A DNA stretch of 28,337 nucleotides from Candidatus Thorarchaeota archaeon (lineage in GTDB: Archaea; Asgardarchaeota; Thorarchaeia; Thorarchaeales; Thorarchaeaceae). Positions within the stretch are counted from its first letter, which is position 1; each line of letters begins with the position of its first letter. The notes under the pieces were generated by a model that was given only the letters and a program-made list of their open reading frames with translations, searched no databases and was not told where the DNA came from. The stretch lies in contig JAEOUG010000092.1 in the NCBI GenBank assembly GCA_016839445.1, positions 1 through 28,337 on the forward strand. The letters are read 5' to 3'. Below are positions 16,241 through 26,810 of this stretch, one piece after another. A program made the translations under genes and the position numbers.

Positions 16241-16294
16241 ATGATGTCACTCGGAAAGCTTTAATTCAGAAGCGCCGCGACGCTCTAGATACAG

Positions 16295-16427
16295 GGGCCC
16301 GTTGCCTAGCCCGGGGATGTGTACAGTCAGTGCACATCGCGGTTCATAGGGCGCCAGCCTTCTAGAGACACGATTCGTGGCTGAAGACAGTTGGAAATCG
16401 TGAGTTCGAATCTCACCGGGCCCGCCA
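16295..16427 (+). tRNA. tRNA-Arg(TCT) with two introns (D-loop ~16315-16345; canonical 37/38 at 16365-16388), CCA encoded
   Basis: Acceptor stem GGGCCCG/CGGGCCC-G-CCA, T arm GTGAG TTCGAAT CTCAC, anticodon stem CCAGC/GTTGG. Removing both inserts gives D-loop AGCCCGGATA and anticodon loop CTTCTAA. TTTAAT promoter at 16260-16265. Confidence 0.9.
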
Positions 16428-16428
16428 C

Positions 16429-18186
16429 TCATTTCTCGAAGACCATTGCCTGTGCGAGCCAATCTGGGAGATTTGTTTCAAGAAGACTCTCAATCTCGAC
16501 ACGGGAGGATAACTCGGGAGCGGCTTTCACTCGAGCTGCTCTCTTTGATCCAATCCCAGGTATTGCTTTCCATTGACCCAACGTCATCTTCCGGGGAGAG
16601 AGGGGATACGGAAGGACTGTGACGGACCGTGGGCCGTGGTCTACAACGAGGACATTGGCAACCTCCATGTTTGAAGTGCCTGCAGGCATCTGACAGAGTA
16701 ATGGATAGGTCCCCAGTTGCCTCATGAGAAGGTTGTTTCCCTCTTCCTTCTCCACGAATACCCTGCTAAGAACAGTGCCCCTGGGAGCAACGCGTCTGAT
16801 CATTTCGAGGTCTATCTCTTTCCGGACGGTCTCTCGATGTGTGAAGAACTCGTTTCTCTTGATTGCGGAACGTGTCTTCGTGTCCATCCTCGTACCTGCA
16901 AGTCCAATCACCTGACGAATGTTGATGCGCCTCACCATTAGTTCCGACTTGACAAGATCTCTCAAGAACTCGAGATTGTACGAGAGTGTTCTCTTGCTCT
17001 CACCAGGTAATCCGTACAACAGGTTGATTCCCGGAAGTAGGTGAGGAAGGCCTCCAGGTTCTCTCTGAGACCCCACTTCGTTCAGGACTCTGATTGCCTC
17101 AAGCACTTCCTCTTCGTCGGCCTTGAGGTTGTTTCTCCGAATCACCTCTGGGTCAAGGGACTCGACGCCAAAGGCGGCGACATCTCCAGGAGTGTGGTAC
17201 TTGACAATGACACGTGCTGCTTCTCTAGACTCCTCTGGATGGCGGGCAACAGTCCCCGGGTTGACGTTGTCTATGTGCAAGACATCAAGGCCGGGGGCGG
17301 ACTTCCGAATGCCCGAAAAGAAGCCCTCGAGGAACTCTGGATTGGGGGTGGGGAATTCCTCCTCACCCATCTCGGTAGAACCGTAGGTGAAGAGGTCAGC
17401 TTGGCTGCCAATCCTGAATGCCCTGACTCCAGAGGCGTATAGGGCCGCAATCTCTGCACAGACATCCTCGGGCCTACGCTGAAGTGGTTCTCCATAGGAC
17501 GGCTCAACGCAGAAGGAGCACCCACCAGTAAGGAATCTTGGACACCCCCGATAGGTCTCAATCTCGCAGATGAGGTGTTTCCTAGCCATGTTGGGGTGTG
17601 CCGCCACAAGCCTAGCTCCTCGTACCGCATACTCCTCAGACGACTCCAATGACTCTCTCACAGCTCCAAGATACAGGTCAGAGAGACCCCAACTGGAGCC
17701 TGCAAGATTCCCCACTACAACCTCAGGATCACCTGTGACTATGTATTCGAATGGAGGGCTTAGGCGCTCGGGACTCAGCGCGAGCTTCCCTCCCTCAAGT
17801 CCGCAGCCGAAGCGAGCCCACGGACCCACAAGCATCTTGGGCACATCAGAGATGAGAGTCGCCGAGAATAGCTCTCTCGCCTCCCTAACTGAGATGGGAG
17901 TCCCACCGAGATACTTCCCAGGGACAATCATTCCTGCAATGAGGATCAGTAGATCACTCCTCGACCAGCGCTCAATGGCTGCGGAGAAGCTGCTCCGTAC
18001 AGAGTCAATCGTCTCATATTGAACATCAGTTCTGGGCGAATGAGTCCAGATTGCACCTGCCAAGTATCTTGGGTACTGACTCAGATACGGAGGCACTCCG
18101 AGGACTGTAGGTTCATCGACATATCCATCTACGATGGTGACTCTTTGCAGACTAACCCCACTCCCTGAAGCTGTCGTATCCATCAC
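16429..18186 (-). CDS. Radical SAM protein with C-terminal TRAM-like and helix-hairpin-helix regions (COG1031-type); true start probably near 18150
   Basis: VDGYVDEP..LGVPPY, ETYRGCPRFLTGGCSFC, LHIDNVNP, RRINIRQV and IPGIGSKRA motifs. Confidence 0.88.
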   Translation of the reverse strand: MMDTTASGSGVSLQRVTIVDGYVDEPTVLGVPPYLSQYPRYLAGAIWTHSPRTDVQYETIDSVRSSFSAAIERWSRSDLLILIAGMIVPGKYLGGTPISVREARELFSATLISDVPKMLVGPWARFGCGLEGGKLALSPERLSPPFEYIVTGDPEVVVGNLAGSSWGLSDLYLGAVRESLESSEEYAVRGARLVAAHPNMARKHLICEIETYRGCPRFLTGGCSFCVEPSYGEPLQRRPEDVCAEIAALYASGVRAFRIGSQADLFTYGSTEMGEEEFPTPNPEFLEGFFSGIRKSAPGLDVLHIDNVNPGTVARHPEESREAARVIVKYHTPGDVAAFGVESLDPEVIRRNNLKADEEEVLEAIRVLNEVGSQREPGGLPHLLPGINLLYGLPGESKRTLSYNLEFLRDLVKSELMVRRINIRQVIGLAGTRMDTKTRSAIKRNEFFTHRETVRKEIDLEMIRRVAPRGTVLSRVFVEKEEGNNLLMRQLGTYPLLCQMPAGTSNMEVANVLVVDHGPRSVTVLPYPLSPRKMTLGQWKAIPGIGSKRAARVKAAPELSSRVEIESLLETNLPDWLAQAMVFEK

Positions 18187-19255: not shown

Positions 19256-19331
19256 GCCTCGGTGGCTCAGGGGTTAGAGCGTCTGCCTCGTAAGCAGAAT
19301 GCCGCGGGTTCGAATCCCGCCCGGGGCTCCA
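19256..19331 (+). tRNA. tRNA-Thr(CGT), CCA encoded
   Basis: GCCTCGG/CCGGGGC-T-CCA acceptor, TCTGC CTCGTAA GCAGA anticodon arm; TTTTATA at 19221-19227. Confidence 0.97.
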
Positions 19332-26722: not shown

Positions 26723-26810
26723 GCGGAGGTTGCCAAGCCAGGTCAAAGGCGCCAGGTTGAGGGCCTGGTTCAGTAGTGATTCGCGAGTTCGAATCTCGCC
26801 CTCCGCACCA
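26723..26810 (+). tRNA. tRNA-Leu(GAG), CCA encoded
   Basis: GCGGAGG/CCTCCGC-A-CCA acceptor, CCAGG TTGAGGG CCTGG anticodon arm, long variable arm. Confidence 0.97.

Follow-up and report, generated by a model that had tools for sequence, protein, structure and literature searches.

The 28,337-nt contig JAEOUG010000092.1 of the Candidatus Thorarchaeota assembly GCA_016839445.1, a metagenome-assembled genome (MAG) of an Asgard archaeon, carries on its forward strand, at positions 16295-16427, a tRNA-Arg(UCU) gene that is interrupted by two inserts, one of 31 nt in the D-loop (16315-16345) and one of 24 nt in the anticodon loop (16365-16388). We are highly confident that this locus is a real and working tRNA-Arg(UCU) gene, the only one found in this genome, and that both inserts are introns spliced by the endonuclease EndA. 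In the following, the window denotes the whole stretch of 28,337 nt, which is contig C56 of the MAG, and positions are counted from its first base. The MAG itself, G000, comprises about 2.9 Mb on 190 contigs (labelled C) and is 89.8% complete with 6.45% contamination; G001-G024 are genomes of the same genus, L designates extracted loci and X metagenome runs.

The first exon (16295-16314) provides the 5' strand of the acceptor stem, U8, position 9, the 5' strand of the D-stem and the D-loop up to G18 G19. The second (16346-16364) resumes with A20 U20a A21 and continues through the 3' strand of the D-stem, position 26, the 5' strand of the anticodon stem and the anticodon TCT (16361-16363) to A37, and the third (16389-16427) runs from A38 through the 3' strand of the anticodon stem, the variable loop, the T-arm and the 3' strand of the acceptor stem to the discriminator base G16424 and a genome-encoded CCA at 16425-16427. 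The acceptor stem consists of 7 bp (16295-16301 with 16417-16423), and the T-arm is regular. When both inserts are deleted by coordinate, 78 nt remain, for which ARAGORN draws a regular tRNA-Arg(tct) cloverleaf with the D-stem GCCU/GGGC, a 10-nt D-loop containing G18 G19, the anticodon stem CCAGC/GUUGG and the loop C-U-UCU-A-A; all stems are intact, and the spliced sequence is a member of the tRNA family (Rfam RF00005) by its cloverleaf. A preliminary description, made from the letters of the window, had called a tRNA-Arg(TCT) with two introns at this place, and the gene call, the positions and the boundaries are all borne out by the cloverleaf, by orthologues in related genomes and by a contig from metagenome run X1.

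Splice junctions read from natural variants

A BLAST search with the 133-base gene against 40 relatives gave matches in 19 of the 24 same-genus genomes (no match was obtained by this search in G009, G010, G018, G020 and G021). Extraction of the genes showed that 18 of the 24 congeners have an Arg(TCT) orthologue, the match in G017 being another tRNA, and all four possible intron states are represented among them. Both introns are present in one of the 18 (G016), the anticodon intron alone in three (G022, G019 and G008, the last with two copies), the D-loop intron alone in 13 (G001, G002, G003, G005, G006, G007, G011, G012, G013, G014, G015, G023 and G024), and neither in one (G004). Exons 1 and 2 are identical in nearly all orthologues, and the intron-less variants join the exons exactly at the coordinates given above: intron 1 is missing to the base in L006, L007, L008, L031 and L015 and in record 3 of run X1, and intron 2 is missing to the base in 14 of the 18 gene-bearing congeners (the 13 with intron 1 only and the one with neither). 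Intron 2 measures 24 nt in all five orthologous copies (L005-L008 and L031). The X1 record is an 85-nt intron-free DNA contig, in which 16314 is joined to 16346 and 16364 to 16389; this allele has a different upstream flank and co-occurs with the two-intron form, its carrier in that sample being a related strain or species. In both introns the first and the last base are unlike the exon bases they abut, so that the junctions cannot slide, and that of intron 1 is settled as G19/A20. Excision between positions 19 and 20, which restores the D-loop, had originally been proposed with an uncertainty of 1 nt; this uncertainty is resolved in favour of 19/20 by the non-sliding junctions together with the intron-less orthologues.

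A comparison within the genome points to the same site: when the D-arm is aligned with the Arg(TCG) and Arg(CCG) paralogues, neither of which has an intron, one gap of 31 nt opens there. The exon sequences are conserved; the intron sequences diverge strongly, yet keep a hairpin. Beyond the genus, a scan with the exon 1 pattern through one genome per prokaryote species returned 56 loci, mostly from Candidatus Thorarchaeota, some from Bathyarchaeia and Promethearchaeota, and one from an Iainarchaeum. By our own classification 39 of these are Arg(TCT) genes, among which 4 hold both introns, 19 intron 1 only, 9 intron 2 only and 7 neither, where three of the last group (L053, L054 and L076, all on one contig) have no recognisable 3' end and may hold an intron elsewhere. 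Four Arg(TCT) genes, L017 (from G013), L019 (from G001), L085 and L088, carry C at position 33, in place of the near-universal U, and C at position 20a. The two-intron form itself was recovered with 0 differences on DNA contigs of four metagenome runs from four studies, one of which may be the source sample of the MAG; the whole gene is spanned by X1 record 2, X2 record 8 and X9 record 19, and X3 record 13 stops within intron 2, at 16371. No RNA run turned up among the sequencing runs listed for this locus, which speaks neither for nor against its expression.

Splicing motifs and splicing enzymes

Intron 2, located at the canonical 37/38 site, displays the strict bulge-helix-bulge (BHB) motif of the hBHBh' form, with a 4-bp helix CTTC/GAAG, the 3-nt bulges TAG and ACA, an inner stem-loop, and the anticodon stem as outer helix. 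The cuts predicted from this motif, after the second base of each bulge, coincide with the junctions in the intron-less orthologues and in the X1 contig, and in L031 the central helix is kept through two G-U changes. The helix, the bulges and the coordinates of this clean motif are as first described.

The motif of intron 1 is of a different kind. Its inner hairpin has 9 bp, including one G-U pair, and a 5-nt loop, with 16316-16324 pairing with 16330-16338. The central helix demanded by the junctions is formed by G15, C16, C17 and C17a of the D-loop with the intron bases -3 to -6, counted from the 3' end, as a G-U pair, two C-G pairs and a C/C mismatch; C17a could instead pair with the G at -7, with one C bulged. 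The 5' bulge consists of G18, G19 and the first intron base, after which the 9-bp hairpin begins, and the 3' bulge consists of U, C and A20 and is closed by C11-A14 with U20a-G23, that is, by a D-stem shifted by one. The strict form of the motif is absent from this intron, with three of four central pairs, an extra G opposite the 5' bulge and the shifted D-stem. A relaxed BHB of the HBh'/hBH class is present, its 5' half consisting of the central helix, the bulge and the 9-bp inner helix. The 9-bp hairpin and a relaxed motif with one mismatch lie where the preliminary description had placed them in the 31-nt insert. At the same site some relatives (L017, L019, L020, L066, L081 and L093) have the strict form with four of four pairs. 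Two of these, L066 and L093, represent a second Thorarchaeota clade, in which an unrelated intron occupies the same site with a complete central helix.

The register of intron 1 was further assessed by counting pairs anchored on the junctions, with shifted registers as controls; a MAFFT alignment of the 26 D-arm regions was not used for this purpose, as it puts the partner of 17a in differing columns depending on the architecture of the intron. Among 26 distinct genes with intron 1 the junction-consistent register allows 84 of 104 possible pairs, compared to 38-57 for registers slid by 1-2 bases. The pair 17a:-6 is C:G in seven genes, A:T in three and T:A in six, and since three or more Watson-Crick pair types at one position require compensatory change, the covariation in the relatives supports the junction-consistent register. 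The conserved A-A/G-U-C hairpin loop of intron 1 might conceivably have a role of its own.

Removal of an intron with a relaxed motif would call for an endonuclease of broad specificity. The genome contains one EndA gene (C102:33766-34245, minus strand) with both the N- and the C-terminal Pfam domains. In a phmmer alignment its product has Asn where His stands in the EndA of M. jannaschii, and as we take this His to be a member of the catalytic triad (Tyr, His, Lys), the G000 protein is read as a structural beta subunit. Two EndA paralogues are present in all 24 congeners and in 12 of the 16 more distant relatives. The alpha paralogue of G002 (L034), the one catalytic paralogue inspected, matches 3p1z_B, which we take to be the catalytic EndA subunit of Aeropyrum pernix, with E = 5e-46 and without gaps through the N-terminal loop, with Lys opposite K44; against the M. 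jannaschii structure 1a79 its match begins only past the loop region. The G002 enzyme thus has the loop that marks (alpha-beta)2 EndA. As reported in the relevant part of PMC5829648, K44 of A. pernix belongs to this crenarchaeal-specific loop (L1), which is conserved in TACK and Asgard archaea, and Asgard archaea carry an (alpha-beta)2 EndA with L1; according to the same source, efficient cleavage of relaxed motifs, a D-loop HBh' intron among them, is confined to EndAs that have the loop (PMC5829648). The ligase RtcB is found in G000 at 590 bits. An endonuclease of broad specificity had been postulated for the lineage at the outset, and for the lineage this type is supported by the two paralogues in all congeners and the loop in G002; for G000 itself, which shows one non-catalytic paralogue, the support is only indirect.

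On the model of the well-studied archaeal route, a precursor of about 135 nt would be transcribed from the gene's own promoter, and EndA would cut it at the two BHB motifs, the strict one in the anticodon loop (37/38) and the relaxed one in the D-loop (19/20). At the latter, G15-C17a of the D-loop would pair with the 3' end of the intron, and the shifted D-stem (C11-A14 with U20a-G23) would close the 3' bulge. RtcB would then join the three exons to the 78-nt tRNA with a normal D-loop containing G18 G19.

Alternative explanations

Several observations weigh against this interpretation. Because the genes compared are related to one another, fewer independent events have taken place than the pair counts suggest, and the motif of intron 1 is weak in this particular gene, with its three of four central pairs, its extra G opposite the 5' bulge and its D-stem shifted by one. 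The minimum-energy fold of the precursor (RNAfold, -58.8 kcal/mol; z = -3.55 against 200 shuffles, one of which folds as well) extends the helix as AGCC/GGTT, the alternative register named in the preliminary description, with a normal D-stem and also shifts the helix of intron 2, and an explicit model with both BHB motifs reaches -50.1 kcal/mol, 8.7 kcal/mol worse than the minimum-energy fold. Moreover, a tblastn search of G000 with a congener's alpha subunit did not find the catalytic EndA alpha and returned only the beta-like gene, at 28% identity; most likely this reflects a gap in the assembly. As nearest-neighbour energies penalise 3-nt bulges and ignore protein, the junctions obtained by comparison were weighed above the fold energies. 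The folding results bear most directly on the question of whether the register of intron 1 is shifted by one, such that EndA reads A14-C17/GGUU and cuts after G18 and after A20, leaving a D-loop without G19. The minimum-energy fold of the local D-arm region, like that of the whole precursor, forms the AGCC/GGTT helix with a normal D-stem, and the energy difference to the junction-consistent model lies in the same direction. Nevertheless, we regard this register as unlikely: in the intron-free orthologues and in the X1 contig GG is joined directly to ATA, L012-type relatives form C17a:G and are unable to form the A14 pair, and the second clade has its four-pair helix in the junction-consistent register. 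In addition, G18 G19 is near-universal in tRNA.

Slightly less probable still is that the D-loop insert is not an EndA-spliced intron, be it that it persists as an expanded D-loop in the mature tRNA or that something other than EndA takes it out. If it were retained, the 31 nt of hairpin separating G19 from A20 would disrupt the contact between D-loop and T-loop; furthermore, the insert comes and goes as a whole, to the base, in the orthologues and the X1 contig, and covariation maintains the pairing of its ends with bases of the D-loop. The relaxed motif in this gene would fit such an explanation, as would the statement in part of a recent preprint that a sizeable minority of D-arm inserts is without a canonical motif and that some of them may not be introns (bioRxiv 10.64898/2026.10.13.758758). 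A further argument against it is that EndA in this lineage is of the type for which cleavage of relaxed D-loop motifs has been reported (PMC5829648). It is very unlikely that the locus is a decaying pseudogene and that the genuine Arg(UCU) gene is to be sought in the tenth of the genome missing from the assembly. A completeness of 89.8% leaves room for a second gene, and G008 has two copies. In the assembled part of G000, however, a search for a second Arg(TCT) gene with ARAGORN in intron mode, a scan for acceptor and T-arm, Rfam and BLAST yielded none, a check that the preliminary description had asked for and whose reach is bounded by the missing tenth. The stems of the gene are intact, CCA is kept, the promoter motif is conserved and exons 1 and 2 are identical to those of the orthologues of 18 congeners; among the loci examined, the gene is single-copy in 17 of the 18 gene-bearing congeners. 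AGA is, moreover, the commonest arginine codon of the genome: counted over the 735 open frames that reach 400 codons or more, it accounts for 26.5% of Arg codons and stands at 14.6 per thousand. Lastly, the two-intron arrangement might be a chimera assembled from the reads of several strains, for metagenomes do hold co-occurring relatives with other intron states (X1 record 3, and a variant in X3 record 14). That the contigs without differences come from four runs of four studies, three of them spanning the whole gene, and that a two-intron orthologue occurs in G016 and four two-intron genes occur in the species collection render this explanation extremely improbable. A single functional gene with two EndA-spliced introns, the first of them cut at 19/20, accordingly remains the reading we prefer by far.

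Detection, genomic surroundings and known systems

The preliminary description had predicted that standard tRNA finders may miss this gene, and both ARAGORN and Rfam indeed miss or miscall the locus. ARAGORN with default settings reports nothing here and calls only the three other tRNAs of the window, and Rfam at its gathering threshold returns the same three. In its intron mode ARAGORN omits the gene in a run on the whole genome and, given the locus by itself, miscalls it as Thr(cgt) with an intron of 47 nt. At a relaxed threshold the Rfam tRNA model matches the precursor partially, at 16340-16424 (T-arm and acceptor), with 19.2 bits against a cut-off of 29. The intron-free orthologue L015, whose exons 1 and 2 are identical, scores 60.2 bits against the same cut-off and is called Arg(tct) by ARAGORN. 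Rfam matches of the locus to Plastid-ycf2, YrlA and Plastid-psbI-rps4 lie far below their cut-offs, reflect the T-arm hairpin and were dismissed. The gene thus provides a concrete case of how D-loop introns make default tRNA finders under-report the tRNA sets of Asgard archaea; without it, the genome appears to be deprived of a decoder for AGA, its commonest arginine codon.

Upstream of the gene, at 16252-16266 on the plus strand, a purine-rich stretch resembling a B recognition element (BRE) is followed by the TATA-like TTTAATT at 16260-16266, -35 to -29 from the gene start. A near-identical motif, CGGAAAGCTTTATG, lies about 29-41 nt 5' of the gene in most orthologues of the genus regardless of their intron state, including the flanks of L005-L022. 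Archaeal promoters generally have a BRE and a TATA box upstream of the gene start, and by this layout the motif presumably represents the promoter. Directly after CCA, a T-rich trailer (16428-16440, plus strand) might act as an archaeal termination signal, and the trailers of the orthologues are likewise pyrimidine- and T-rich; in the window a radical-SAM gene (16429-18186, minus strand; Pfam Radical_SAM) converges on the tRNA gene, and its stop-codon end reaches into the trailer. The other tRNA genes of the window, Gly(TCC) at 1081-1155 on the minus strand and Thr(CGT) at 19256-19331 and Leu(GAG) at 26723-26810 on the plus strand, are compact and intron-free.

Elsewhere the genome is rich in tRNA introns. 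From 42 rows of an acceptor-end scan, 38 genuine-looking tRNA candidates remained after removal of 4 that are no tRNAs, and 20 of the 38 span at least 100 nt between the acceptor ends, 6 of them at least 128 nt. The closest parallel to the gene described here is tRNA-Arg(CCT) at C102:32266-32396 on the minus strand (L001:3128-3258, minus strand), which has a 31-nt insert at the same D-loop site and a 26-nt intron in the anticodon loop. Between the D-loop intron of Arg(UCU) and that of Arg(CCU) there is no evident similarity and no sign of recent copying in G000, as judged from their comparison and without a search for intron transposition. The Arg(CCT) gene lies about 1.4 kb from the EndA beta-like gene on C102, and by coordinates an Arg-like tRNA match and the weaker EndA paralogue recur on one contig in G001, G003, G012, G013, G016 and G024. 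The locus L067, titled Candidatus Iainarchaeum, is a tRNA-Arg(GCG) whose exon 1 is identical and whose D-loop is interrupted at the same site by 29 nt; this insert could be a shared old intron or the result of gene transfer or a binning error. Further tRNAs of G000 with inserts outside 37/38 are located at C20:9651-9754 (-), C133:20224-20324 (-), C76:3859-3961 (+), C102:23188-23291 (+), C137:72-199 (-), C86:3917-4052 (-) and C76:2278-2413 (-). Glu(CTC) has 30 nt after position 8-9 and Gln(TTG) a D-loop insert (both checked by alignment), in Lys(TTT) and Val(TAC) the insert apparently follows the anticodon arm, and the initiator Met, the 136-nt gene on C86 and Asp(GTC) probably contain two or more inserts. 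Two identical tRNA-Pro(CGG) genes (C40:137-209 and C77:18414-18486) either arose by duplication or reflect strain redundancy or the 6.45% contamination. In a scan of G000 for box C/D-like guides, 113 loose candidates gave only 8-9-nt matches to the Arg(UCU) precursor, which were taken as chance. One weak box C/D-like candidate with degenerate boxes, C145:1888-1947 (+), which is perhaps situated within a coding region, shows complementarity through 12 nt of its D guide to the T-arm and acceptor 3' side of tRNA-Arg(CCT).

It might be speculated that the 19/20 D-loop intron is an old, family-wide feature of the arginine tRNAs of Thorarchaeota (UCU and CCU, and GCG in the MAG labelled Iainarchaeum) that has been repeatedly and precisely lost and regained, an idea that we consider tentative and rather doubtful. 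If it were true, the four intron states within one genus would form a natural series for timing intron gain versus loss mediated by reverse transcripts, and this series could define the minimal substrate of an Asgard EndA, an enzyme related to the ancestor from which the eukaryotic Sen complex arose. Independently of this, the four states of one gene in one genus yield base-exact junctions from DNA alone and could serve studies on intron turnover.

Genes of this kind are already in print for Asgard archaea and are ordinary for the group, and there is little new in kind here, since multi-intron tRNA genes, relaxed D-arm motifs and an (alpha-beta)2 EndA with L1 have all been described for it. 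The context that the preliminary description had sought in Thermoproteales and some DPANN archaea has to be corrected, the present lineage being Asgard (Thorarchaeota). A system of another phylum, described in 2008, reportedly combines short, protein-spliced introns outside 37/38, relaxed HBh' motifs and a heterotetrameric EndA with the crenarchaeal-specific loop. Closer relatives are the multi-intron, non-canonical tRNA genes mentioned for Atabeyarchaeia and Freyarchaeia by Valentin-Alvarado et al. 2024 (PMC11291895) and the Asgard set of the preprint, whose main text names D-arm inserts as what tRNAscan-SE most often misses in Asgard archaea and two EndA paralogues as usual (bioRxiv 10.64898/2026.10.13.758758). 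As far as these sources present them, such cases resemble ours in belonging to the same phylum, in having multiple introns with a D-arm insert missed by annotators, in the setting of junctions by comparison with compact relatives, and in the (alpha-beta)2 EndA background (PMC11291895; bioRxiv 10.64898/2026.10.13.758758). They differ in their focus on Freyr-, Jordi- and Atabeyarchaeia, the string 'Thorarchae' being absent from the main text of the preprint (bioRxiv 10.64898/2026.10.13.758758), and in that our case presents one gene in all four intron states within a single genus. The nearest biochemical parallel is the pre-tRNA-Glu(UUC) of Methanopyrus kandleri, whose D-loop HBh' intron is, according to the section describing it, cut efficiently by the (alpha-beta)2 EndA of Aeropyrum pernix (PMC5829648). 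Like the Thorarchaeota gene, it has two introns, one strict at 37/38 and one relaxed in the D-loop or D-arm, and needs an EndA of broad specificity; the tRNA, the organism and the exact site differ, and the M. kandleri case, as that section gives it, has biochemical and RNA-seq proof, whereas ours is known from DNA alone (PMC5829648).

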